A stretch of DNA of 32,000 nucleotides from Acaryochloris marina MBIC11017. GTDB lineage: Bacteria > Cyanobacteriota > Cyanobacteriia > Thermosynechococcales > Thermosynechococcaceae. The notes under the pieces were generated by a model, which ran no database searches, was not told where the DNA came from, and was given only the letters and a program-made list of their open reading frames with translations. Location: the NCBI RefSeq assembly GCF_000018105.1, contig NC_009931.1, positions 32,962 through 64,961 of the forward strand. The letters run 5' to 3'. Of the stretch, positions 3,115 through 27,555 are shown in pieces (position 1 is the first letter of the stretch; each line of letters starts with the position of its first letter). The position numbers and the translations under genes are program-made.

Positions 3115-3274
3115 TTGACGGTGCAAAAAAATTAGACTATCTAAACATAAAATTACGCTGTCTGTGGCACCTTCTTCTTTATGGGTTCGCTAGATGCGGT
3201 GATGATAGACGAGTTAGCGCCTGAATGAGCCGAGGCTCGAAACCATATGAATGTCTCTGAGCTATGTTATAGTG

Positions 3275-3436
3275 TCGAGCAAATCGGTTCTGATGGGAAA
3301 CAGCCATCAGACGTAAGGGGGAAAGTCCGGTGTGAATCCGGCGCTGTCCCGCAGCTGTAAGGAGAGACGCAACTCTCTAAGCCAGAATGCCCACCGGTTG
3401 AAAACCCGTTACATAACTATCTGCGAGGTACAGGTA
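3275..3436 (+). promoter_or_regulatory. Cobalamin (B12) riboswitch
   Basis: The conserved aptamer core is GGGGGAAAGTCCGGTGTGAATCCGGCGCTGTCCCGCAGCTGTAAGG (3317-3362). It fits the consensus GGGAA..GGTG.AA.CC....C.G.CCCGC..CTGTAA. A B12-box-like AAGCCAGAATGCCCACC lies at 3379-3395. Flanking helices are TCTGATGG/CCATCAGA (3289-3311) and GGAGAG/CTCTCT (3361-3378). A GAGG Shine-Dalgarno at 3425-3428 and an ATG at 3437 follow. The ends are approximate. Confidence 0.85.
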
Positions 3437-3500: not shown

Positions 3501-3905
3501 TTGTGGAGATATAACCTACTTGCCATTGGTAGCGCCAGTAACTTCATCTATCCTCATGTCCCTTTAGTTAGCTTGGCATCGCTGGCGGGAGTCACTCTTA
3601 ATCGCAGACAAGCCATTGTCTCTGCTGGGTTGATTTGGTTGGTTAATCAATTCTTTGGTTTTACCGTTCTGCAATATCCTCTCAGTGCGATCTCACTCCT
3701 GTGGGGCCTGTCTATGGGACTGGGGACCATTGCAGTTGCCTTGGTTGCCTCAATTCGGCCCCCCTTTAGTCGTCGCAGTTGGTGGGCACAAAGTTTATGG
3801 CTAGGCATTTCATTGTTGCTTGGTTTTTGTCTCTATCAAAGCGGTACGCTGCTGGTCAATCAATGGGTGCAAATGCATGGTCTCACGGCTGATGTGTTTC
3901 TATAG
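3501..3905 (+). CDS. Small integral membrane protein (about 4 predicted TM helices) of unrecognised family; first gene downstream of the B12 riboswitch
   Basis: This is a 134-aa ORF (TTG start per the track) with hydrophobic stretches AIVSAGLIWLVNQFFGFTVL, AISLLWGLSMGLGTIAVALVASI and SLWLGISLLLGFCLYQSGTLLV. A better-placed ATG at 3437 with a GAGG SD is one frame off. It would join this frame if the T6 run at 3449-3454 were T5. Confidence 0.65.
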   Translation: MWRYNLLAIGSASNFIYPHVPLVSLASLAGVTLNRRQAIVSAGLIWLVNQFFGFTVLQYPLSAISLLWGLSMGLGTIAVALVASIRPPFSRRSWWAQSLWLGISLLLGFCLYQSGTLLVNQWVQMHGLTADVFL

Positions 3906-4326: not shown

Positions 4327-7209
4327 ATGCCAGACACAAAAGAGTTAGAGTCTGCTCCCTTATCAATACTGCCTCCTATTCAGGGTGGGTCTGTGGAGGG
4401 GCTTGACGCCGAGTACAAAGTCATTCGCCGCAATGGCAGCGTTGTTGGGTTTGAGGCGGACAAAATCGCGATCGCAATGACCAAAGCGTTTCTTGCTGTC
4501 AAAGGTGTGCAGAGTGGAGTCTCTGCGCGAGTGCGTGAGCTGGTGGCAACGCTGACCACCAATGTTGTTACCGCCTTGAAGCGCCGTCAGCCCACTGGCG
4601 GCACCTTTCACATTGAAGATATTCAAGATCAGGTGGAGCTGGCTTTAATGCGCTCTGGCGAGCATGATGTCGCTCGCGCCTATGTGCTGTATCGCGAAAA
4701 GCGTTCTCAAAAACGTACCCAACAGCATGGCATAGAGGCAGCTCCAATTTACCTGATGGATGGCGGTGATCGCGTATTACTTGATTTGGAGCGCTTCAAC
4801 GATTTGGTTGATTCCGCTTGCATCAACCTCGGAGATACGGTGAGTGGCAAGGCGATCGCTGATGAAGCCCTCAAAAATATTTACGATGGAGCGTCGGTGG
4901 TAGAACTACATAAGTCAGCGATATTGGCGGCGAGATCGCACATTGAAAAAGATCCAGACTACAGCAAAGTCACGGCAAGACTTCTTCTGCACAGGATTCG
5001 CCAGGAGGTCTTGGGTGCAGAAGTAACTCAAGCAGAGATGCAAGCCCGCTACGCTGAATATTTTCCCCACTTTATTCAGCAAGGTATTGCAACCGGACTA
5101 CTAGACGAAAAGCTCGCTCAATTTAACTTGCAGAAATTAGGTTCGGTCCTTGTCGCTGAGCGTGATCTTCAGTTTGGCTATCTGGGGTTACAAACCCTCT
5201 ATGATCGCTATTTTCTGCATACAGAAGATCGACGGATTGAGCTACCCCAGGCATTTTTTATGCGTGTGGCCATGGGACTTGCCCTGAACGAAATCGATCG
5301 TGAAGAACGGGCAGCGGAGTTCTACGACATCTTATCGAAGTTTGATTTCATGAGTTCGACCCCCACGCTGTTCAACTCGGGGACGGTGCGATCTCAGCTT
5401 TCTTCTTGTTATTTGACGACGGTACCGGATGCCCTCGACGGCATTTATAGCGCAATAAAAGACAACGCGCTGCTCTCCAAATATGCCGGGGGGCTGGGGA
5501 ATGACTGGACACCAGTACGGGCGCTAGGTGCTCATATTAAAGGCACCAACGGTAAATCTCAAGGCGTAGTACCGTTTCTCAAGGTCGTTAACGATACGGC
5601 AGTTGCTGTGAATCAAGGAGGCAAAAGAAAGGGAGCCGTATGCGCTTATTTAGAAACCTGGCATTTGGATATCGAAGAGTTTTTAGAACTCCGCAAAAAT
5701 ACCGGAGACGATCGCCGCCGCACCCACGACATAAACACCGCCAACTGGATTCCCGACCTATTTATGAAGCGGGTGATGGAAGATGGCGACTGGACGCTGT
5801 TTTCGCCGGATATAGTACCGGATCTCCATGACAAAGTGGGCAAAGAATTTGAAACTGCTTACCTGGCCTACGAGCAGCAGGCTGCAAAGGGCGAACTGAA
5901 GCCTTTCAAGACCGTGCCCGCCAATACCCTCTGGCGCAAGATGCTGTCGATGCTGTTTGAAACTGGCCACCCCTGGATTACGTTTAAAGACCCCTGTAAT
6001 GTGAGGTCGCCTCAGCAGCATATTGGCATGGTGCATAGCTCAAACCTTTGCACCGAAGTTACGCTCAACACGAATGAAAATGAAATAGCCGTGTGCAATC
6101 TTGGCTCAGTCAATCTTGTTAATCACATGGTGGAGAAAAACGGTCAAATGCAGCTCGATCAAGCCAAGCTGCAACACACCATCACCATTGCCATGCGGAT
6201 GCTGGATAATGTGATCGACCTGAACTACTATGCCGTCAGCACAGCGCGGAATTCTAACCTCAAGCATCGCCCCGTGGGTTTGGGGATTATGGGCTTCCAA
6301 GACTGTCTGCACCAACTGCGCCTGCCCTACGCCTCTCAAGATGCGGTTGACTTTGCAGATCGCGCTATGGAAGCCGTCTGCTACTACGCCTACTGGGCTT
6401 CGACCGAACTGGCCCAAGAACGCGGTCGGTACTCCACCTACAAAGGGTCACTGTGGGATCGCGGTATTTTACCCCAAGATACCCTGGCACTTCTCAAAGA
6501 AGTACGCGGTGGATTTGTGGAGGTGGATGAGTCTTCTACGATGGATTGGGATCTGCTGCGAGACCGGATTGCCCAGCATGGAATGCGAAACTCGAACTGC
6601 GTTGCGATCGCCCCCACCGCAACCATTGCCAACATCATTGGTGTCTCTGCTTGCATCGAGCCAACCTACCAAAATCTGTACGTCAAATCAAATCTGTCAG
6701 GGGAGTTTACCGTCGTCAACGAGTATTTGGTGCGCGACCTCAAAGTCCGTGAACTTTGGGATGAAGTTATGATTGCCGACCTTAAATATTTCGACGGCAG
6801 TTTGGCAAAAATCGATCGGATTCCGCCAGAGCTACGCCAGCTTTACGCTACCGCCTTCGAGGTTGAACCCAATTGGATTGTGGAAGCTGCGGCCCGTCGC
6901 AGTAAGTGGATCGATCAGGCTCAATCGCTCAATATCTACATGGCCGGAGCATCGGGCAAAAAGCTCGATCAGATCTACAAGCTGGCGTGGCAGCGTGGCT
7001 TAAAAACCACCTACTATCTTCGCTCCCTCGGTGCCACCCATGTTGAAAAATCGACGGCTCCAGCCAGTAGCCTCAACGCGGTATCCAATAACGGCAGCAG
7101 CAATGGTATAGGCAATATACTCACTACCTCAAAATCTGAAAACTTGGGTCAGGTTTGTAGCTTATCCCCTGGCGATGCCAACTTTGATGACTGCGAAGCC
7201 TGCCAGTAA
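4327..7209 (+). CDS. nrdA: Ribonucleoside-diphosphate reductase alpha subunit, class Ia (long form with an N-terminal ATP-cone and a second degenerate cone)
   Basis: This is a 960-aa ORF with AAGGA 10 nt upstream of the ATG. The ATP-cone is [22 protein letters not shown]. Catalytic motifs include SSCYL, NLCTEV and PTATIANI. The C-terminal redox tail ends with the Cys pair in DDCEACQ. The overall length and architecture resemble Pseudomonas-type NrdA. Confidence 0.95.
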
Positions 7210-7250
7210 GCAACTGGTCAGTAAATTTGTTAACCCCTAAGGAGACTCTA

Positions 7251-8405
7251 ATGATGTTGGTGTGGGAAGAAGAGACGACCGCTACAGCACAGACCAAAAC
7301 TGTTCAGACCGAACCCGTTCAGGCGGTTCCATCACCGCAAGAAGCTGGCCCTCAAACAATAATGGCTCAACCGGAAACGCAACCCCCTCGTCGCATCAAC
7401 GTTGCTGACAAGCGCATCATTAACGGCCAAACCGATGTCAATCAGCTTGTGCCCTTTAAGTACCAGTGGGCCTGGGACAAATATCTGGCAGGCTGTGCTA
7501 ACCACTGGATGCCCCAAGAGATCAATATGAGCAGGGATATTGCACTGTGGAAAACCACTGACGGGTTAACCGAAGATGAGCGTCGCATCGTCAAGCGGAA
7601 TCTCGGCTTTTTTGTCACCGCAGATTCTTTAGCCGCTAACAATATTGTTCTGGGCACCTATCGACATATCACGGCACCAGAATGCCGCCAATATTTACTA
7701 CGTCAAGCCTTTGAAGAAGCCATCCATACCCATGCCTATCAATATATTGTCGAATCCTTGGGGCTAGATGAGGGCGAAATCTTTAATGCTTACCGAGAAG
7801 TGGACTGCATTCGCGAGAAAGATGAGTTTTTAATTCCCTTTGTCGAGACTTTGACCGATCCTACCTTTGAAACCGGCACCCCCGAAAACGATCAAAAACT
7901 GCTTAAGTCTCTAATTGCTTTCTCTTGTCTTATGGAAGGTCTTTTTTTCTATGTAGGCTTTGTCCAAATCTTGGCCTTGGGTCGCCAAAACAAAATGACG
8001 GGCGCAGCCGAGCAGTATCAATACATCCTGCGGGATGAGTCGATGCACTGCAATTTTGGTATCGATCTAGTCAATGCCATTAAGCAAGAAAACCCGCATC
8101 TGTGGACCCCTGAATTTTGCGAAGAGATCCGCGATCTGTTTAAGCGGGCGGTAGAGCTTGAATATCGCTACGCCGAAGACACCATGCCCCGTGGCGTGCT
8201 CGGGCTTAATGCCTCTATGTTTAAGAGCTACTTGCGCTACATTGCCAATCGGCGTTCTCAGCAGATTGGCCTCGACCCCATTTTTGCTTCTGAAGAAAAT
8301 CCCTTCCCTTGGATGAGTGAGATGGTAGACCTCAAAAAGGAACGCAACTTCTTTGAAACCCGTGTGTTGGAATATCAGACCGGTGGGGCACTCAGTTGGG
8401 ATTAA
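7251..8405 (+). CDS. nrdB: Ribonucleoside-diphosphate reductase beta subunit, class Ia (di-iron tyrosyl radical type)
   Basis: The ATG at 7251 lies 6 nt after AAGGAG (7239-7244); the track start 7227 is TTG. Metal and radical motifs are FFVTADSL (Asp ligand), [12 protein letters not shown] (E-x-x-H then Tyr at +4), LMEGLFFY and [10 protein letters not shown]. The C-terminal end is [10 protein letters not shown]. Confidence 0.93.
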
Positions 8406-16577: not shown

Positions 16578-17805
16578 TCAAGATGAGCAGCTATAGTGCG
16601 AAACGCCACCAGCATTAAAAAACGCCTTAGGTCTTAGACGATAGTATTTATCTTCTACGTCTTGCGATTGCTCATCATATGGATAGCTCAGTACTTCTTG
16701 CAGCTCTTTAACTAATGTGTAGTCACCCTGCATGGCTTGTTGGTAGGCGGGGACAATCAACCACTCTCTCCATGTGTATTTTGGATTAGTCTGTTTCATA
16801 TGTTTTGATATCTCAGCCAAATTGCCGTCCTTAATAACGAGGTCGCGCCAGCTTTTTAGCCAAGATTGCCATTGTTCGTCGAGTTGTTGTGACGTTTTGC
16901 CATAGAAGCTCTTTTTCAAAGCTGAGACATCCTCAGGTATGTGGGATAACTCCCGGAAGAAAATGGTGTAATCTACCGCTGAGTTGGTCATTAACTGCAT
17001 TAATTCCTTAAACAGCTCTGGGTTAAACTCAGTCAAGCCAAGTTTGGCTGTCCACATTTTTTGGACCTGTTTTTCCATGACTTCTGCAAAGCTGCGGCCT
17101 ACTTGGTCAAACTGTTCTAAAGCATCAGCATCTTCTGACAGTAGCGGTCTTACCGCTTTCCAAAACATATAATAATTCGCTTCTGCTGCGATGGGCTGAT
17201 AGAAGAATGAAAATTGTTCGGCGCCGCCAGTCCAAGGTTGAAACCAAGGGTCAAAAACTTCACAAAACCCAAAAGGTCCATAGTCGAGGGTAAAGCCACC
17301 AGCGGCGCAGTTGTCGCTGTTAAAATTACCCTGGCAGTAACCAACACGTAGCCAATTGGTCACCAGGGAAGTGAGACGTTGGCGAAATAGCGTAGCCAAC
17401 TCAACCAATTGATCAGCAAAACCAAGGTTTTGATTAATATCGCTTTTGTATTCTCGCTCCATTAAATGGGACACGATCATGCTCAACTCTTCTAAGGCTC
17501 TTGGATGAGCCTTGTTGCGAGCGCGGCGGGCAAATAACTCTAGTTGCCCCACGCGCAAAAAGGAGGGGGCAACGCGAGTTGAAATGGCCACAGGATCGTC
17601 CATCAAAACATCAGGGTCAGTGGAGTAGGAGTTTTGAGAATACCAAGGCCGCTTAACGGTCTCAGATTTAGAAGCATACAGGGTCAAAGAACGCGATGTT
17701 GGCACACCTAAAGCCTGCATATATTCTTGCGCAAGAAACTCACGCACACTAGAACGGAGTACTGCGCGCCCGTCGCCACCACGGCAATAAGGTGTGGGGC
17801 CACCC
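16578..17805 (-). pseudogene. selO: selO (YdiU/UPF0061 protein adenylyltransferase) pseudogene, C-terminal part
   Basis: Motifs are [52 protein letters not shown] and [22 protein letters not shown]. The frame continues from the N-terminal part at 27629-28113 once the intervening 9,823 bp and one copy of the 10-bp duplication are removed. Residues upstream of PWGGP in the track ORF are IS-derived read-through. Confidence 0.85.
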
Positions 17806-17891
17806 CAGGGCGACCGCACATAGAAGTTAACAAAGCAGTCGAATTCGGAAGAGGTGGAGGATAATGCCTCAAAAACAACGCTCAGCAAGCC

Positions 17892-18488
17892 ATGACATCC
17901 TCTCCCTTTGCCTCAATTATTGAACACTTCAGCGACTTAGACGACCCGAGAGCAGCCCACCGCATAGAGTATTCGCTAGAAGATATCATCATCATCACCC
18001 TATGCGCTGTCCTTTGTGGAGCAGATAATTGGGTGGAAGTGGCCAACTATGGTCGTTCCAAAGCCCAGTGGTTAAAGCAATGGATAGCATTGCCAAACGG
18101 TGTTCCCTCCCATGACACCTTCGAGTGGGTCTTTGCCAGATTGAAACCTCAACAATTGCAGCAGTGCTTTCTCAATTGGACTCAAGCCATCTATCAACTG
18201 AGCGCAGGAGAATTGATTGCGATTGACGGCAAGACACTCCGGGGCGCGATTGCGCCAGGTGAGCAGTGCAGCTTGATTCACATGGTCAGTGCATGGGCCA
18301 GTCACAATCGTCTAGTTTTAGGTCAACGCACCGTTGACGAGAAATCCAATGAGATTACGGCTATTCCTGAATTACTGAAAGTGTTAGAGCTTGAAGGAGC
18401 CTTGGTCAGTATTGATGCGATGGGCTGTCAAACAGCGATTGCCGAGACGATTATTGAGGGCCAAGGTGATTATGTGTTGGCCCTCAAA
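17892..18488 (+). pseudogene. ISAs1-family transposase, fragment 1 of 3 (N-terminal 199 codons)
   Basis: Motifs are FSDLDDPRAAHRIEYSLEDIIIITLCAVLCGADNW, IAIDGKTLRG, HMVSAWAS and SIDAMGCQTAIA. The fragment ends ...DYVLALK at the Tn3-family insertion point. The track ORF tail 18489-18572 is read-through into the Tn3 IR. Confidence 0.86.
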
Positions 18489-18673
18489 GGGGTAATTGAA
18501 GGGTCGCTGACACCAGCTGCAATCAAAATAGATCACCCCCCAAAACAGGGCAAATTCACCTCTAATCAATAAGTTTTACTTAAGTATTTTTTGCCGCTGT
18601 ACTACTCGATAGTCGAGCAAAGGTTGCCTTGCTGAGATGGGCCTCAACTCAGCAACCTCACTGCAGCTACTCC

Positions 18674-19492
18674 CTACGCAGCCAAGTTTTCAATCACCAG
18701 ACGCTCATTCATGTTTAGTCGGAAACGCCCATAAGGATTGATATGAAGGTAGAACAGGGGCGTTAACGCCCTCAAATCTTCTTCTTGCATACGATTCATC
18801 CACGTCGGCTCAGAAAGTACTTTTTGAATCATCAGCGTATTGATATAGACCAGGCTGATTTGTAGTAGGTGCAAACACAGCATGGATAGCTCTTGCATAG
18901 CCGTTTGATTACTGGCAAAGTCACCATTCTTGCCATAGAAGATGAAGTCATTGGCACTATTCCAATTCTCAACGACATTCAAGCCTTCGTTGATCTCTTG
19001 CCGTAAGGCCTCATCATGCAAATACTGGCAAAGGAAGATGGTCTTAATGGCTCGCCCTAATTCAGCCAAAGCAAGATAGGTGGGGTGCTTGATGTTGTTA
19101 CGGGTGAACCGACTCAGAATCGCTTCCGGTTCGGCAGTACCTTGCTTCATCGCGGTTGTGAACTGAATCATTGGCTCGTACTGCTCCCGCACCAGATCCC
19201 AACGAATGGGTCGCTTTAGAATCGTTGTCAAATGGACATACTTCTTCTTCTGCCCAGACATCGGCAGGTAGAGCTTCTGTTTGTTGATGCCTTTGAAGCG
19301 AGGCATCAACTGAAAATTCAGCAAATAGCAAAAGGCAAACCCCACCTCGCTTTGGCCATGGGTATCCACATAACTTTTATTCACTGACATTTGCGTGCAG
19401 TGTCGAAGTACGCCCTTCACCATAAAGGCCACCTCCGAAGAAGAACACTTCTTCAGTTGCGAGTAGATACATACGGATTTTTTCTCGACATG
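18674..19492 (-). CDS. tnpA: Tn3-family transposase TnpA, exon 2 (C-terminal 272 aa)
   Basis: The exon begins [31 protein letters not shown]... and carries the second catalytic Asp (YVDTHGQSE) and the Glu ([19 protein letters not shown]). It is in frame with exon 1 after intron removal: 819 nt plus 2130 nt gives 982 codons plus a stop. Confidence 0.85.
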
Positions 19493-21946
19493 GTTAACCT
19501 AAGCCGGAGGATCACTCCTCCGACTTGGCTTCAAAACCGTGCGTAAATCTTTCGATTTACACGGCTCCTCAGTGGCTTGGTGCTTGTCATACATACCATT
19601 TGGCCTGAGAGGACTTCTCCTTGGCCGTTTTAACATAATGACAATGTCTGTGTAGTAGTTGAAGATTCTTGTATACGTCCAATCCTCCCATTGATGTAGG
19701 GAGAATGTGATCCACTTCAAGTAAATCTTCTTCTCGGAAGAACATGCCGCACTGAGCGCATTTCCCCTTCTGCTTCTTCAAGAGCATAGATACTCTCTTC
19801 GGAGCTTCTGGATGCTTCCCAGTCCTTGAACTCCAGTAAACTAGATTGCCATTGTAGGGACTTGCATCCCCCTTGACTTTGACATGGCGGATAATTGGAG
19901 TCTGTCGATGTTTGAGTAATTTTTCGGTTCTAGATTTAGTTACTCTAGTCGCGAAGACCCATTTATCTCCCCCGACAGTTTGCCAATATTTATTCACCAC
20001 CCATTTCCTGGATTTGCCAGGATGGCGGTGGTTAGCCCATGTTTGAAGCTTTTGATACAGTAAATGGTCTAGACGGGAGAAGGTCTCTTTACTAGCCATG
20101 GTCGAATAATATCTCGTCCATCCTCTAATCACGGGATTGAGGTGGCGGATTAATGCCGCTTGCGGCGCTGCCTTATGGGCGTTGATGATACTAACGAGCC
20201 GATTGTAATGTACTTTTTGCTTCTTTCGACTGGGGGTAATGATGGTCTTAAATCCCAGCAATGTCCCGCATAATCTCCCCGATTGATGTTGACCGACCGG
20301 GAATTGTCTAACTGAGAATCCTAGAAAATCAAATCCAGGGTTTTCAGCTTCATACCTTTTGAGAGTATGGGATATATGCGTTTTGCTAGGTTTTAGTTCC
20401 AACCCCATGTCTTTTAGCCACTCATGAACTAAGCTCTGACATCTTTGAACTACGGATAAATCCTCGTGAAGAATCACGAAGTCATCACAGTATCGAATGA
20501 CATCAGGAGTAGCAATTCTTTTTCGCTTATTCCCGTCGGCAATCTTTCTGATAGGAAAGGCTTGCTTGATTCGATACTCTAGGCCATGGAGGGCTACATT
20601 TGCCAACAAAGGAGAGATAGTCCCCCCTTGAGGTGCTCCTTCAGATGTCTGTAAGAACTGATGACCATCAATTACCCCAGCTTTTAGCCAAGTTTTTATT
20701 TGTCGGCGTAGAGTGGGAAAGGTCTTCAGCTTTTTGAGCAGTGCTTCGTGGTTTATTCGGTCAAAACATTGGGCTATATCAGCGTCCAACACATATTTTG
20801 CTTTCTGTTTAATGGCTGCAAAAATTTGTTCTATCGCGTCATGACATGAACGGCCTGGTCTTGAACCATAGGAGTTTGGTTCGAAAACCGCTTCCCATTC
20901 AGGTTCCAGGGCTAGTTTGACTAGTGTCATTCTTGCCCTTTCATACAGGGTCGGTATACCCAAAGGACGTTGTTCGTCTTTTCCTGGTTTAGGAATCCAC
21001 ACCCGTCTGGTGGGAGGGGCCTTTGAGCCGAGTTTAAGTTGACCCACTAGGGGCAGACGAGCTTCTGGGGACAGAGATTTAACTCCATCCACACCTGCCG
21101 TCTTTTTTCCCTGGTTGTCTTGTGTGACCCGTCTAACTGAAAGGCATTTGGCTGACCAGGACCTCATCAGAGTTTTCTGGAGTCTATGTACTACTTTGAC
21201 ATCGCCACGTTGTCTGGCTCTGAATATGCGCTTTTGCAACTTAAACACTTTCCGCTCTAGTTTTGGCCAGGGGATTGCGCTCCATTCCATCATCGGTTTG
21301 ACCCGTGCTTTAGACATATTTATTGCTACTTGTTCCTATTCATTCCAAGTCACCGTGAGTCTGTCTGCTTATCCTCACCATTACAGTGGGGCTTTTGCTT
21401 TTGACCCAATCCTTCCCACCGCCTAACTTCTGGTTAGCACCTACTCTTAGCCAATCGACCTCCAAGAGAGATAGGCGGGGGTTACTTCGTTCCTAATAGC
21501 CATTGATTGAACTGTTAGAGTGATGCGCTCCACCGGGTTTATTGGAAGTGCTAACTGGTCGCTACTGGACACGCCAGCTCCGTATATCCTTGCCCTTTTG
21601 GGACTCCCAGCGTTATCAACCTAATTTCGCTGGTTAATGATTACGGTGGGTTAACCACATCTTCGCTTTCGCTACTCATAAGTTCTTGCTCGAAGGGGTT
21701 CAGAGCTAGGCTCCCTGTTACCTCCTTTTTTCCCCGCTTCAGGCGTTGATGGCTAGTCGCGAACCTGGGGGAAATGCTGTCACCGCTGCACCTGCGGGAT
21801 AGGACTAGAGCGGTCTAGGATACTGACTCTCACCTATATGGCTATTAAGTTGTCAAGGTACAGTTGGGATATTTTCCCCTTCTTTACGCTTGCGGCTAAT
21901 CCCCTCAAACCCTATTCAGGTCTAGTTTCTAGCCAACGAATCGCAC
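19493..21946 (-). mobile_element. Group II intron (2,454 nt, ORF in domain IV) interrupting tnpA in the sense orientation
   Basis: The 5' end is GTGCGATTCG (complement of 21946 downward), directly after the TGG codon. Domain V is GAGCCGTGTAAATCGAAAGATTTACGCACGGTTT (19534-19567). Domain VI is CCAAGTCGGAGGA-GTGA-TCCTCCGGCTTAGG with a bulged branch A at 19500, 7 nt before the 3' end ...GGTTAAC (19493). The EBS1 candidate CCAGTAG (complement of 21562-21568) pairs with the last 7 exon nt, CTACTGG. Confidence 0.88.
19587..21317 (-). CDS. Group II intron-encoded reverse transcriptase/maturase with a C-terminal HNH endonuclease domain
   Basis: This is a 576-aa ORF. RT motifs are RVWIPKPGKDEQRPLGIPTLYERARM, GAPQGGTISPLLANVAL and YCDDFVILH (YxDD). 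The maturase/X region is RGWTRYY. The HNH domain is CAQCG...EVDHILPTSMGG...LQLLHRHCH. Confidence 0.93.
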   Translation of the reverse strand: MSKARVKPMMEWSAIPWPKLERKVFKLQKRIFRARQRGDVKVVHRLQKTLMRSWSAKCLSVRRVTQDNQGKKTAGVDGVKSLSPEARLPLVGQLKLGSKAPPTRRVWIPKPGKDEQRPLGIPTLYERARMTLVKLALEPEWEAVFEPNSYGSRPGRSCHDAIEQIFAAIKQKAKYVLDADIAQCFDRINHEALLKKLKTFPTLRRQIKTWLKAGVIDGHQFLQTSEGAPQGGTISPLLANVALHGLEYRIKQAFPIRKIADGNKRKRIATPDVIRYCDDFVILHEDLSVVQRCQSLVHEWLKDMGLELKPSKTHISHTLKRYEAENPGFDFLGFSVRQFPVGQHQSGRLCGTLLGFKTIITPSRKKQKVHYNRLVSIINAHKAAPQAALIRHLNPVIRGWTRYYSTMASKETFSRLDHLLYQKLQTWANHRHPGKSRKWVVNKYWQTVGGDKWVFATRVTKSRTEKLLKHRQTPIIRHVKVKGDASPYNGNLVYWSSRTGKHPEAPKRVSMLLKKQKGKCAQCGMFFREEDLLEVDHILPTSMGGLDVYKNLQLLHRHCHYVKTAKEKSSQAKWYV

Positions 21947-24076
21947 CCAGTAGATCATCACCCCCCGGCCGCCATAACGAACATGCCATTCCGTCATCAA
22001 ATTCTGGTCCCAAGATTCAAAGTGCCGAGAATCAGACGCACAGGCAGTGGTGGCTTCCCCCCAGACATGAGAAAGGCGAATCTGGAAAATCGCATTGGCC
22101 ACATCCGTAATGGCACAGCTGAGGGCCATTTTGCTTAAAAATTTGCGTCGGACATAATGCAATTCAAAGTATCCTGCATCGGCTTCTGAATGAGCGATGC
22201 GCTTAATCCCTAAATTAGTGCCCAGTCCGTAAATGCACAACAGTAAGCGCTTGCGCAGGGACTGAGGTTTCAATATTTCACGACTGGCCGCACTCTTGAA
22301 ATGTTGGGTGAAATCAATCCGAAAGTCCGCTTCTTTGAGCACATCCAACAAATGCGTTAGAGACCACCGGTTGTTGATCTCTTCCTTGAGCTTCTGGATG
22401 TTCATGGGTTCAGGTTGTGCCTCCAGAGGAGATACCTTAACGCGTCCCCCTCGCTTACTCAAGATCTCAACTTTAGAATTGTGAGGCATCCCCTGATTCA
22501 AAAGGGTCAAAGCATTTTCCATATCAGCCTGGATTTGAGCGATGAAGGTTTCCACCTCTAGGGGCTGTTGTAGATCCTGGTAATATTCCTCTCGCCGCTC
22601 GTCAAAGTCTTGGGGTAAATCCAGATCGGGATTGCGATAGCGATTGGCACCGGCGACCCAAATTTCCTTACACCGTAGTTTCTCTCGCAAGGCCCTGAGG
22701 ACACACATCTCATAGGCGATGCGATCTACTTTGTCTGGCTGGTCCTCATCCTGACCTAACACCGTCTCTTGCCAGTCTGCACTGACGACCCCTTCAATGG
22801 GGACGTCATCTTCTGAGGCATAAGGTTTTCGGGGGGTGTCCACATAGGCTTTGAGTAAATCCACAGCCTGCAGGATGGGCTGGTATTGCTTGTTATTGCA
22901 CCGAAAGTCAATCACTTCCAGTACCGCAGGAAGCATTTGCCGATAATGATGACCGTAGGAAGAACGGATCCTCGAGTGTAGAAGTTGTCGGTAAGTCTGA
23001 CCGCCATCATTATAGGAATCAACAAATGTTTCCAGGGTTTGCTCACTGGCAACGGGGTAGATAACGTCTCTGACCAAGCCATCTGGTGTGGCTAGGGCTG
23101 CGGTGGCCACCTGATAAAACAGTTGGGTATGAGAGTCGGTTTTTTTGACTTTAGCGATCACCTCTGACGTCACTTTATTCTTGCTGCGTGTATCAATGCG
23201 ATGAACGATCTGAATCAATAAATCCATGATGTTGTCGATGATCTCTTGGCACCGCTGCCAGCAGAAACTCGCGAGTAAGGTGAGTCGGATGGTTTTGGGG
23301 TGATGCCTCAACTCTGATAAGGTTTCTGTCTCCACTCGGAGCCGATAACACTCCAGAACTCGTGGGCTTAGATGAGAAAACAGGGTATCAGGCAAAGCCA
23401 CTTGGCGGAGTCGTTGGAGTTTGATGACTTCTGAAAGCAGGCTATTGAGACCGACTGGTCCTGGGTCTTTTTTCAACGCACTTAGGGGAGGATCTGGGAT
23501 CTCTTTACCTGGGGTCACCTTGGGTTCTTGGATCAATTCATCGAGCTCAGTCTGAGTTTGCTTGGACAGGTGCTGAAGAGTTGAGGAAAAAAACTTGCGT
23601 TCAAACAGGCGTTGAGCGGACCGGATTAAACGCTCAATCCTAGCAGGGGCAGGTGGTTCAATCTGAAGTGAACGCAGTTGAGCATAGACTTTTAATTTCA
23701 GATGATGATAGTCCTGCTCTTGACTGAGGAAGGTATCGACTAACCAAGTGCGAAGTTGGTTTTGGTCTGCCACAGTGGCTTGTCGAAATCCGGAAAATTG
23801 GCGAATCTGGGCTCTGTGATAATAGCTATTCCTCCCATGCCAGTCATAGCTCTGGAACAGCTCGGGCAGTAGTTCTAACTGTTCTGCGACGAAGGTCAGT
23901 GCCATACGAGGAATCTCATACTTCTGTTCAGGGAAGCGTCCTTCATATTGGAAAAATTTAAGCAGCAGGACAAATCCTAAGCGGTTTGCTCCTTGACGTC
24001 TGGCCAATAGATGCTCCTCGTCAGGTTGGATAGACCAATGCTCAAGCAGCTCTTCTGGATGCCATTTCCGTTTCAT
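21947..24076 (-). CDS. tnpA: Tn3-family transposase TnpA, exon 1 (N-terminal 710 aa)
   Basis: The DUF4158-type N-terminus is MKRKWHPEELLEHWSIQPDE...LGFVLLLKFFQYEGRFP. The first catalytic Asp region is ACASDSRHFESWDQNLMTEWHVRYGGRGVMIYW. The last 5 residues of the track ORF (VRFVG) are intron read-through. Confidence 0.87.
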
Positions 24077-24249
24077 GCAATTACGCTCCTATGAAAGTGA
24101 ATTCATTAGAGCGTAAGGCAAGTTTTTGTACTATAAGCGTAGATTATGAATTAAGGGTGATGGAAGTCAATGGAGTTTACAGTTCTTAATGGCTATAAGC
24201 TTTACTAGGTAAGGGATTCAGCCTTGATTGCAGCTGGTGTCAGCAACCC

Positions 24250-26081
24250 TGACACTGTTGGCGAATTCCAAGAAGTCACGCTGGTAATGGCTGAAGTATC
24301 CTCTTGAAAAGAGATACACGAGTTTTTGCTAGTGGAACATCATTAAACCAAGCGTCTAAGCGGACAAAATTGAGAGCAATGGCACAGAAAACATTCTGTA
24401 GATGGCTCTTCGCTAACCCGATATACCTTGATTGGCGCATGCCAAATCGCCGTATTCCCTGTGAATGGGTACTCTCAACACCAGCCCGCAGGCTATATTT
24501 TTCCTTGAACTCAGTAGTTCGTTGTACCTGACGTCGTTCATTAAGGGCTTGATGTAACTCACGGGGACGGAACGTCAACTCTCTTGGCTGGGTCTTTGAT
24601 TTCGTACATTGAGATCGCACTGGACAACTTCGGCAAGTGGTCCCCTGGAACCTTGCTTGAATGACATCCTTTCCGTGAATATCCTTTCCAGGCAACCATT
24701 TCGTACTGAAGTGGCCTTGAGGACAGACAACCTTCTGTTGGTCCCAACTGATGAGGAAGAAGCTCGAATCAAATCCGTTTCCTGCCTTTGCTTGCCAACT
24801 ATGATTTTGACGCACTGGACCAATAACATCCATGTCATATTCTGCTTTGCTATTCACCAAATGCTCTGCCGAGAGGTAACCCCCATCTAACAAATGCTCT
24901 TTAGGCAACAACTGTTTTTTAGCCAGAGCCAGGTGAATGGGTTCAACAACTTGATCATCTGGAACCGTTGCACTGGTGGTGTGCACATGAGTGATGAGAC
25001 GTGGACTTTCAGGATCACACACTTCTGTTAAATGAACTTTATAGCCCACCCAATCCATACTTCTTTTATTGCTATAGCGGGCTTCGACATCGTAAGGAGA
25101 ATGAATGGATGAATCAGAAGGGGGCATATCCTTCACTTTTCGCCATTCGACTGTGCCGTCTGCATTGGGCGGGTAGAATCGCTGGAGCCAGACTTGTCGC
25201 AGAGTTTCCACTGCAGGTAGATGCTTTAACCACGGTGGTGAACTAGGGGCATATATGGCGTCAAGCAGTGTCAAACCATCTTGACCGATAGTACTGCCCA
25301 AAGCTTTGCGTTCGCTATCGGGTTTGGGCAAGCGATAATTCTCTATTCGTCGACCATAGCGATCAAACCAGTCATCGTGCATGTGTTCGCTTAACCACTG
25401 TGGATCTGCGACAACCAAACTATTGAGAGCAGCCCGAAAGGTTTCACCAAATAACTCCAACCGATTGAGGGTTCGGATCGACGCTAGGATATGGGTCGCA
25501 TCCGTTCGTTGTTGATGGTGTTCTTTAAGGAACCCTTTTGCTTGAAGGTGCTCAAGGAAGCTATCAAATAGCTGTTGTTCCTTGTCACCCGCGATCAGAC
25601 GCTTGCGAAATTCACTCAAAACAGAATAATTAAATCCAGAGTCTCTCAGCGGTAGGCTCAGGGCATATTTCCAATCTATCCGGGCTCGAACGGCATCAGC
25701 CGCTTGACGGTCTGAAAGATTCTCAAGAAATTGCATGATGCAAACTAGCACAAGCTGCCAGGGGGATAGAGCTGGTTGTCCTTTCTTCGGAAACAGATCA
25801 GCAAAATCGTGATCGTGATAGATAATGCCAAGTTCATCACGTAGTTGCATATACAGATTGCCATCAGGAAAGGCAGCCCTAGCTACTTCAATGGTTTCAC
25901 TGGGGATGTCCAACAAGTCTGTCGGGCGCATAGACATAACAATGAGCCTCCAGAGTGAGCGTGATTGAGTTTGAGTTTTAGCAGTACCATACCTCAATCC
26001 ACAAAAGGCTTACTGCATCAAGTGTTAGAAGCTATTTTCAGCCGACTTAGATCATTGCGGAATATTTCGCCAACAGTGTCA
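24250..26081 (-). mobile_element. IS1182-family (IS5-like) insertion sequence, 1,832 bp, inserted inside the right IR of the Tn3-family element
   Basis: The terminal IRs are TGACACTGTTGGCGAA (24250-24265) and TTCGCCAACAGTGTCA (26066-26081), a perfect 16 of 16 match. The 4-bp TSD ACCC lies at 24246-24249 and 26082-26085. Confidence 0.85.
24276..25937 (-). CDS. IS1182-family DDE transposase
   Basis: The ORF has an ATG (complement of 25935-25937) preceded by GGAGG. The track's TTG start at 25997 adds 20 residues. The N-terminal transposase domain is ...PALSPWQLVLVCIMQFLENLSDRQAADAVRARIDWKYALSL. The C-terminal region is ...GVESTHSQGIRRFGMRQSRYIGLAK. Confidence 0.84.
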   Translation of the reverse strand: MSMRPTDLLDIPSETIEVARAAFPDGNLYMQLRDELGIIYHDHDFADLFPKKGQPALSPWQLVLVCIMQFLENLSDRQAADAVRARIDWKYALSLPLRDSGFNYSVLSEFRKRLIAGDKEQQLFDSFLEHLQAKGFLKEHHQQRTDATHILASIRTLNRLELFGETFRAALNSLVVADPQWLSEHMHDDWFDRYGRRIENYRLPKPDSERKALGSTIGQDGLTLLDAIYAPSSPPWLKHLPAVETLRQVWLQRFYPPNADGTVEWRKVKDMPPSDSSIHSPYDVEARYSNKRSMDWVGYKVHLTEVCDPESPRLITHVHTTSATVPDDQVVEPIHLALAKKQLLPKEHLLDGGYLSAEHLVNSKAEYDMDVIGPVRQNHSWQAKAGNGFDSSFFLISWDQQKVVCPQGHFSTKWLPGKDIHGKDVIQARFQGTTCRSCPVRSQCTKSKTQPRELTFRPRELHQALNERRQVQRTTEFKEKYSLRAGVESTHSQGIRRFGMRQSRYIGLAKSHLQNVFCAIALNFVRLDAWFNDVPLAKTRVSLFKRILQPLPA

Positions 26082-26102
26082 ACCCTTCAATTACCCCTCA
26101 AA

Positions 26103-26611
26103 GGCAATCAAGGTGATTTATATAACGATGTGGTGCAACTGTTTGACCATGCTTGTCAGACTCAATTTCAGGGGATTGAGCATGATAGCTATCAAACCGT
26201 CGAGAAAGGGCATGGGCGAATTGAGCATCGCACCTATTGGACAATGGGGCAAACCGATTACTTACTGGGGGCTGAGCGTTGGGCTCAATTGAAGTCGATT
26301 GGGTGCGTTGAATCGTGTCGTCGTCAGCCAGGACACCCAGGCACACTTCAGCGGCGCTATTACCTTTTGAGCATTGAGAGTGATGCACAACGGTTTGCCG
26401 ATGCTGTGCGCTCTCATTGGGGGATTGAAAACCAGTTGCACTGGATTTTGGATGTGGGATTTCGTGAAGATAAACTGCGTGCCTGTCAGGGATGCAGTGC
26501 TCAAAACCTATCCGTCATTCGTCATCTTGCAGCTAATTTGCTGCAGCAAGAGTCAACGGCTAAATGTGGGATTAAGGCAAAACGGCTCAAGGCAGGTTGG
26601 GATGATAACTA
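26103..26611 (+). pseudogene. ISAs1-family transposase, fragment 2 of 3
   Basis: The fragment resumes GNQGDLYNDVVQLF... and carries the C-terminal signature HWGIENQLHWILDVGFREDK. It is cut at ...GWDDNY by the IS630 insertion. The track ORF portion 25965-26102 is IS1182 and Tn3-IR sequence, not coding. Confidence 0.85.
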
Positions 26612-27555
26612 TAGCACTACGGATATATGTTAGTACGCTCTTTGAAAGCAGCATCCACACAATCACGAAAGGTATCAAATTCATCCCACCGCTGCTTCAT
26701 CCAGTTTTTGAGCACAAACCACCATCGCTCGATTTTATTGAGATCTGGAGAATAGCTCGGTAGATACCAAATCTCACAGCCTGCTTCAGCTACGATTTCT
26801 TCGATCCTCTGGCCATGATGAAAACTGGCATTATCAATCACAATCACATCGCCAAGTTGTAACTGGGATATAAGACTCTGCTGTAACCACGCTTCGAATA
26901 ACAACCGATTGCAAGACCCTTCAAAGGTCATGGGAGAAAATAACTGGCCTTCTTTGAGCGCAGCAATAAAACTGACTCGCTCTGTCCGCTTGCCTGATTT
27001 GAGGTCATAAAATCGTTGACCCACAGGGCAGTATCCATAAGGATAGTCCGCTCGATTATCGATACCCGCTTCGTCTACATAGACGATCTGATGAGGGTGT
27101 TTGGTCTGTAATCGTTCTATAAATGCTTGACGTTGTGTTTCATCTCGTTCTCGATAGCCATAGGTCTTTTTTTTCGACTCAATCCCAGTTTTCTCAAGGC
27201 ATCACTGATATTTTGCTGGGTGACATTATCCCCCCATAGCTTAGCCATTTGGGCCTGGGTTTTACCCCCATGCTCTTGAGCAAATTCACGAAAGCGCTCC
27301 CAATCTGTGATCTTGTGGCGAGCCCCTTGTTGGTAGTTGGTAATCGCCTGACAGTCACCTGTAGCTTCTTCGCGGACTATCCATAGATGCAAGGTATTAC
27401 GGCTGATGTTCAACATTCGACAGATATCGACTTTCCGTTCACCATTCTTGAAGGCATCAACGGCTTTACGACGAAGGTCATAACTATAGGGTGCTGGCAT
27501 ACTAATGTAGGGATATCTTCTATATCAATAGTACTAACATAGTTTCGTAGGGCTA
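26612..27555 (-). mobile_element. IS630-family insertion sequence, 944 bp, inserted at a TA in the 3' end of the ISAs1 transposase gene
   Basis: The 25-nt IRs are TAGCACTACGGATATATGTTAGTAC (26612-26636) and the reverse complement of 27531-27555, TAGCCCTACGAAACTATGTTAGTAC. They match at 21 of 25 positions. The TA duplication lies at 26610-26611 and 27556-27557. Confidence 0.82.
26617..27500 (-). CDS. IS630-family transposase, two overlapping frames joined by a -1 frameshift on an A8 run
   Basis: OrfA has the HTH ...ICRMLNISRNTLHLWI... and ends ...LGLSRKK. The frame -1 ORF continues KTYGYRERDETQRQAFIERL...YVDEAGID...VIDNASFHH...LPSYSPDLNKIERWW (DDE_3). The slippery run AAAAAAAA is the complement of 27167-27174. 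The fused product is 294 aa. Confidence 0.8.

Follow-up and report, generated by a model that had tools for sequence, protein, structure and literature searches.

Group II introns that interrupt transposase genes have been described before. RmInt1 of S. meliloti resides in the transposase gene of ISRm2011-2, where splicing is needed for transposase and less than 1% exon ligation was found in vivo; this inefficiency has been put forward as a limit on the spread of the host insertion sequence (IS), an idea that has been partly tested (PMC4238363). The introns of T. elongatus, described as IIB1 (the chloroplast-like, or CL, lineage being IIB), have proliferated within the genome (PMC2882425). Here we describe a group II intron in tnpA, the transposase gene of a Tn3-family transposon, in a 32,000-nt stretch (the window) of contig NC_009931.1 of Acaryochloris marina MBIC11017 (positions 32,962 to 64,961). 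All positions given below are those of the window unless another contig is named, and tnpA, the intron and the host element all lie on the minus strand. Judged from sequence comparisons, this is very probably an intact, recently mobile CL/IIB group II intron that retrohomed into tnpA between codons W710 and H711.

Like RmInt1, this intron is in the sense orientation and has its homing site inside a transposase coding region (PMC4238363; PMC1802570), and in both cases transposase production requires splicing because the intron contains stop codons. The two differ in that the intron-encoded protein (IEP) of the window carries an HNH domain and most closely resembles those of CL/IIB1 introns, and in that the host of RmInt1 is an IS, whereas the host here is a Tn3-family DDE transposase with a site common to transposases that are less than 50% identical. 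TeI4h (T.el4h) of T. elongatus is the closest solved IEP, and its intron shares with that of the window a cyanobacterial host, a protein of the reverse transcriptase (RT)-maturase-endonuclease type and exon recognition of the EBS1/EBS2/EBS3 type (EBS, exon-binding site). In contrast, the introns of T. elongatus are spread over many different sites (among them a tRNA gene and other introns), and the clade of the window intron occupies one, in Tn3-family tnpA. Introns in genes for the mobility of their carrier are also exemplified by Ll.LtrB in the relaxase gene ltrB and by the orf14 intron of Tn5397 of C. difficile, in which splicing is required for transfer of the host and the host element in turn spreads the intron; these introns interrupt conjugation genes, carried by plasmids or conjugative transposons, rather than DDE transposase genes, and Ll.LtrB belongs to the IIA/ML (mitochondria-like) introns. 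In general, mobile introns and inteins favor the least variable part of conserved genes, which gives them most sites across divergent hosts. Set against this principle, the conserved target in the present case is a selfish element's own transposase.

The boundaries of the intron were assessed by joining the exons and by comparison with intron-less alleles. The joined exons encoded a 982-aa Tn3-family transposase that was matched in one stretch (residues 6 to 969) by NF033527 (transpos_Tn3; 882 bits, cut-off of 500) and in a single stretch (578 to 967) by Pfam DDE_Tnp_Tn3. Exon 1 ends with a complete TGG codon (W710) and exon 2 opens with CAT GTC GAG (H V E), a phase-0 junction at which exon ligation is in frame. 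Two independent intron-less alleles, retrieved via the spliced TnpA protein, were found on a Logan contig (L001; approximately 93% nucleotide identity, with the protein 96% identical) and on an ENA contig (L002; approximately 90% nucleotide identity). Both were colinear with the window exactly across 21947/19492, and the junction DNA, ATGATCTACTGG/CATGTCGAGAAAAAATC (the slash marks the junction), was identical in the window, L001 and L002. The preliminary description of this stretch, made from its letters alone, had placed a sense-oriented, structurally intact group II intron at 19493 to 21946 and had predicted the in-frame junction; the former was borne out to the nucleotide, and the latter matched exactly the intron-less alleles that it had proposed to look for. 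Its statement that the intron sits in frame holds for the exon junction but not for the intron itself, as translation of exon 1 into the intron meets a stop after 5 intron codons (VRFVG), which would give a product of 715 aa.

The position of the intron relative to the catalytic residues was determined by alignment with Tn4430 TnpA (PDB 7qd8/7qd4), the catalytic triad of which is D679, D751 and E881 (PMC9579193). D682 in the motif ASDS, D753 in YVDTHG and E885 in NVVENW fell on this triad. The first Asp was therefore confirmed to be in exon 1 and the second Asp and the Glu in exon 2, as had been proposed beforehand. In Tn4430 terms, the insertion point is within the RNase-H-like domain, between the equivalents of R708 and F709.

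Both ends of the intron have the expected form, with 5' GUGCG and 3' AC fitting the GUGYG and AY consensus; it starts at 21946 with GTGCG and ends at 19493 with GGTTAAC. Rfam model RF00029 (domains V and VI) matched 19569..19493(-) with 48.2 bits, above its gathering score of 40, and the match stopped exactly at the proposed 3' boundary. Domain V (GAGCCGUG...GAAA...CACGGUUU, at 19567..19534) combines the AGC triad with a 2-nt bulge and a GNRA loop, and is nearly invariant among clade members. In domain VI the predicted branch-point A at 19500 is followed by the 7 nt GGUUAAC, and the stem shows compensatory changes among the window and the clade loci L004, L012 and L013. The canonical domain V and the bulged A of domain VI 7 nt before the 3' end, both noted in the preliminary description, are thus upheld by model match, fold and covariation. 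For domains I to III, the 5' 580 to 690 nt of 29 related introns were aligned and a consensus was derived with RNAalifold: of 76 consensus pairs, 70 showed compensatory changes among the relatives, and the window intron formed 75. Domain V of related introns was located with an nhmmer profile, a strict regular expression having matched just 10.

The IEP, placed in domain IV, reached 302.8 bits with TIGR04416 (cut-off of 300) and has complete RT, maturase and HNH domains. Its best PDB match was the T.el4h maturase-RT (6me0_C; E value of 2.5e-101), over the full length, and its family has thousands of cyanobacterial relatives at approximately 65% identity. The RT motif is YCDD (20490-20501; IEP residues 276 to 279), as it is in the close clade IEPs P0121, P0122, P0126 and P0127; more distant cyanobacterial IEPs in the alignment have YADD, the usual consensus, and TeI4h has YAGD. 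That the stretch holds a decayed intron remnant, or an open reading frame (ORF) with fortuitous motifs and no ribozyme function, is a reading to which we give almost no weight: it is effectively refuted by the 75 of 76 covariation-supported pairs, the complete IEP, the exact boundaries and the presence of a copy that differs by 1 nt at other loci (see below).

Recognition of the exons was assessed through the pairing of EBS1 and EBS2 with the intron-binding sites (IBS1 and IBS2) of the 5' exon and of EBS3 with the first nucleotide of the 3' exon (Table 1). In the window these amount to 7 + 7 + 1 = 15 intron-exon pairs (EBS2 with -14 to -8, EBS1 with -7 to -1, EBS3 with +1). Among 47 related introns at unrelated sites, EBS1 paired better with its own exon (mean of 4.77) than with the exons of other introns (3.09), as did EBS2 (5.36 and 4.24, respectively); in neither case did any of 10,000 permutations reach the observed value. 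When every domain I column was scanned against the first 3'-exon nucleotide in 45 related introns, the column of intron nt 419 was Watson-Crick paired in 87%, and the best column in 500 shuffles did not exceed 58%. Pairing of the 3' exon with domain I through EBS3-IBS3 is expected for IIB introns. Within the clade, L004 has IBS1 TTATTGG and EBS1 CCAATAG, a compensatory change from C-G to U-A at -4; at position -13 of IBS2, loci with G or A carry U in EBS2 and three loci with C carry G, the position being paired in 7 of 7 clade loci. The EBS1 candidate CCAGTAG of the preliminary description, complementary to the last 7 exon nucleotides, thereby gains permutation and covariation support in addition to its 7 Watson-Crick pairs and its location in a hairpin loop. 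A separate observation concerns the 3' exon, where ATCTACT at 19462-19468 (+25 to +31, codons C-I-Y-S) repeats the 7 nt spanning the IBS2 end and the first six of IBS1. This repeat, which is due to protein conservation, might act as a cryptic IBS1-like site (sites of this type lead to mis-splicing of RmInt1); it could form 5 contiguous pairs with EBS1 at most.

We compared the insertion sites of the clade, defined as loci with an IEP at least 78% identical to that of the window (range, 78 to 97%). Readable flanks were available for L003, L004 to L011 (one element in several samples), L012, L013, L096, L097 and L098. All independent clade loci (9/9) had the intron at the same ...(M)IYW/HV(E/D)K... 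codon boundary of a Tn3-family tnpA, in host TnpAs that were 44 to 50% identical to that of the window in exon 1 and 61 to 73% identical in exon 2. In contrast, a Tn3 tnpA was found in none of the fetched flanks (0/80 loci) of more distant relatives with 52 to 64% IEP identity, and an IEP scan of genome contigs yielded no relative closer than 64% and none inside a Tn3 tnpA. The exon positions that pair with the EBSs encode V-M-I-Y-W/H, with a target site of the form ATGATYTAYTGG/CAYGT, and GVMIYWHV was present in 101 of the 119 closest full-length TnpA homologues. Because Met and Trp have single codons, the 14 nt of IBS2-IBS1 vary at third codon positions only (-13, -7 and -4), which are exactly the positions with wobble pairs or compensatory EBS changes. 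The near invariance of GVMIYWHV and the single-codon residues within it therefore conserve the DNA site between transposases that are less than 50% identical.

Two plasmids of A. marina MBIC10699, pREC1 and pREC4, carried a 2454-nt intron that was 1 nt different from that of the window (99.96% identity), in a tnpA whose product had only 45.6% identity to the window protein over exon 1 and 61% over exon 2. This tnpA belongs to a larger element that also carries a gene for a tyrosine recombinase, and the exons of tnpA join into an intact ORF of 988 aa; the predicted ligated junction is ATCTACTGG/CACGTTGAA, compared with ATCTACTGG/CATGTCGAG for the window element. A near-identical intron in a different tnpA indicates recent movement of one intron between transposase genes. 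Co-conversion of the flanking exons between the window and these A. marina copies was considered and rejected, given exons with 46 to 61% protein identity around introns with 99.96%. The suggestion, made in the preliminary description, that the site may be a retrohoming site conserved among Tn3-family tnpA copies is strongly supported by the shared boundary at all nine loci together with the pREC1/pREC4 copy, and the comparison of intron copies that it had proposed yielded IBS changes matched by EBS changes. These comparisons show a clade confined to one conserved site and, as read from the sequences, moving between different Tn3-family elements. Presumably the clade exploits these elements and their plasmids as vehicles.

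Transcription of tnpA would be followed by maturase-assisted excision of a lariat via the predicted branch-point A, and rejoining of the exons would yield mRNA for the full transposase. Unspliced mRNA would yield the 715-aa fragment with the first catalytic Asp only, and transposase output would depend on splicing efficiency. Retrohoming would proceed by reverse splicing, HNH cleavage and reverse transcription, as in IIB introns like TeI4h. A layered control on transposition is plausible and would follow only if the intron splices; the concept has already been published for RmInt1 and ISRm2011-2.

The fragment from unspliced mRNA, which would include the DNA-binding domains of TnpA, might itself have a function, in that it could bind the transposon ends and inhibit transposition or confer target immunity, the spliced product being the active form. 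The stop after 5 intron codons does define a 715-aa product, the catalytic residues are divided between it (D682) and exon 2 (D753 and E885), and RefSeq annotates such a product, of 721 aa, in A. marina. However, any insertion at this site would give the same truncation, and conservation of the homing site alone explains the distribution of the intron, so that we regard a switch of this kind as unlikely. Equally speculative is the wider proposal of a clade that depends on Tn3-family transposons as an obligate hyperparasite and at the same time serves as a splicing-gated switch, via a catalytically dead 715-aa fragment that would bind the transposon ends and repress transposition or confer target immunity. 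If it were true, the intron would set the transposition rate across a family of cyanobacterial Tn3-like elements.

A stronger competitor, though still one that we consider possible rather than likely, is that the intron is a mobile retroelement that splices too poorly for tnpA to be expressed. In this case tnpA would be knocked out, the site would be a harmless, conserved and widespread landing pad, and transposons and plasmids would carry the intron along while intron-bearing copies make no transposase. RmInt1 provides the precedent of less than 1% exon ligation in an IS transposase host (PMC4238363), intron-less alleles of the same element exist that could supply transposase, and the window copy lies in a dead-looking nest of ISs with one inverted repeat split. 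Additional damage to exon 2 was present in L003 and L004. On the other hand, undamaged exon ORFs were retained by the window copy, L012 and the two A. marina copies, and L013 has an undamaged exon 2; all splicing features of the ribozyme and the EBS-IBS pairings are intact, and forward and reverse splicing rely on the same pairings.

Several of these observations also count against the reading of an intact intron that still serves its host gene. Splicing of bacterial group II introns hosted by transposase genes can be very inefficient, as in RmInt1. Exon 2 has a frameshift in L003, and in L004, L005 and L007 it is interrupted by an IS256-family insertion. The host element in the window is probably immobile in cis because an IS1182-family IS divides its left inverted repeat; for the same reason, control by the intron over this element's own transposition is probably moot, and the split repeat together with the pile of IS elements makes selection on this tnpA copy doubtful. 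The whole clade has YCDD where relatives have YADD, although the clade has evidently been mobile. Finally, Rfam at a permissive threshold matched only domain V/VI models in the intron and no D1-D4 family, for which reason the class was assigned from the IEP and EBS3; the assignment to CL/IIB is thus one of nearest-neighbor similarity plus EBS3, not of reference phylogeny.

Table 1. Features of the intron, its host gene and the surrounding mobile elements (window positions)
Feature	Position	Strand	Details
Group II intron	19493..21946	minus	2454 nt, 5' GUGCG...AAC 3'; ends set by two intron-less alleles and RF00029 match
Intron-encoded protein	19587..21317	minus	576 aa; RVT_N, RT (RVT_1), maturase (GIIM), HNH
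Domain V	19534..19567	minus	34 nt, AGC triad, GAAA tetraloop, RF00029 alignment
Domain VI	19496..19530	minus	11-bp stem, bulged A at 19500, 4 more bp, 3' tail AAC
IBS1	21947..21953	minus	CTACTGG, exon -7..-1; 7 Watson-Crick pairs with EBS1
IBS2	21954..21960	minus	TGATGAT, exon -14..-8; 6 Watson-Crick pairs + 1 G.U with EBS2
EBS1	21562..21568	minus	CCAGUAG, intron nt 379-385; terminal loop of covariation-supported hairpin (columns 608-615/659-667)
EBS2	21635..21641	minus	AUCAUUA, intron nt 306-312; unpaired, domain I internal loop (minimum free energy fold)
EBS3	21528	minus	G, intron nt 419; opposite first 3'-exon nucleotide C (19492)
tnpA exon 1	21947..24076	minus	ATG at 24076, codons 1-710; DUF4158 + first part of DDE_Tnp_Tn3
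tnpA exon 2	18674..19492	minus	codons 711-982 + stop; IBS3 = C at 19492
Catalytic D682	22033..22031	minus	exon 1; aligned to Tn4430 D679
Catalytic D753	19366..19364	minus	exon 2; aligned to Tn4430 D751
Catalytic E885	18970..18968	minus	exon 2; aligned to Tn4430 E881
Tn3-family tnpA-only element	18489..26097	minus	38-bp inverted repeats starting GGGG; no resolvase gene
Target duplication TCAAA	18484-18488 and 26098-26102		5 bp; flanks Tn3-family element
Right inverted repeat	18489-18526
Left inverted repeat, split	24224-24249 and 26082-26097		interrupted after 16 nt by IS1182-family element
IS1182-family IS	24250..26081	minus	1832 bp; transposase 24276..25997; Pfam DUF772 + DDE_Tnp_1_6
ISAs1-family transposase gene	17892..18488 + ~26103..26633	plus	split by Tn3-family element
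IS630-family transposase	27117..27500 (HTH, helix-turn-helix) and 26617..27024 (DDE_3)	minus	two ORFs, next to nest

The host transposon is part of a four-level nest of mobile elements at 17892-26633. Deletion of 18489..26102 restored the reading frame of the ISAs1-family transposase, and removal of the IS1182-family IS, which has 16-bp perfect terminal repeats, yielded a left inverted repeat with 37 of 38 positions matching the right repeat. The base Tn3-family element without intron and IS is 3319 bp. A left repeat at 24261 had been considered and was rejected, as its outer 11 nt were unmatched and no target duplication was present; the IS1182-family insert and TCAAA were found instead. The exact protein of the IS1182-family transposase had no match upon look-up, megablast against plasmids gave none, and blastn gave distant IS1182-family relatives only, so the ends of this IS rest on internal consistency.

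At both ends of the intron-less element on L002 (L002:2555-2592 and L002:5880-5917), CCAACAGTGTCA directly adjoined GGGTTGCTGACACC. These 12 nt, which exactly reproduce the end of the IS1182-family insert (window 24250-24265), lie at the same position in the repeat, with no IS there. They could be an alternative type of repeat, the footprint of an excision, or an instance of an IS targeting sequence like its own end. Many close TnpA homologues (P0001, P0002, P0007, P0017, P0022 and others) were on contigs of 3.2 to 3.4 kb, near the size of the base element, which suggests that tnpA-only elements assemble as stand-alone repeats that are multicopy in cyanobacterial samples. At L004:5836-7239, and likewise in L005 and L007, exon 2 breaks off after 40 codons and an IS256-family (Transposase_mut) gene comes next, a further instance of an IS nested in a transposon; on contig L006, related to L004, exon 2 runs on normally to the contig end.

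Elsewhere in the window, a cobalamin riboswitch (RF00174; 57.4 bits) was found at 3268-3412 on the plus strand, upstream of an ORF at 3501-3905 without a Pfam match; a class I ribonucleotide reductase lies downstream of it (large subunit, 4327-7209; small subunit, 7227-8405). The Pfam match of a SelO-family ORF at 16578-17888 (minus strand) began only at position 112 of the 466-position profile. The ORF starts right next to the ISAs1-family gene at 17892, and it may have been truncated at its 5' end by the ISAs1-family IS.

In RefSeq, exon 1 plus 5 intron-encoded residues is annotated as a "complete" 721-aa Tn3 family transposase (WP_012167199.1) on NZ_AP026076.1 (L094:2955-5120) and NZ_AP026079.1 (L095), with ltrA as a separate gene and exon 2 not listed in the gene table of PLSDB, from which pseudogenes are left out. 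Such tnpA genes are thus called a truncated transposase and a separate ltrA and should be annotated as a split gene with an intron. Full-text searches of the open-access literature returned no account of a lineage of introns that targets Tn3-family tnpA, nor any of the Acaryochloris case. The locus is a tidy example of a known arrangement, with no new mechanism. As a case of nested selfish elements, it presents a retroelement specialized on that stretch of another element's catalytic domain which is most conserved and least degenerate, where the choice of a site with the single-codon residues Met and Trp lets the intron jump between transposases that are less than 50% identical. A natural series of EBS/IBS variants is also at hand, and the Acaryochloris plasmids offer a tractable system for studying whether splicing limits transposition, as has been proposed for RmInt1.

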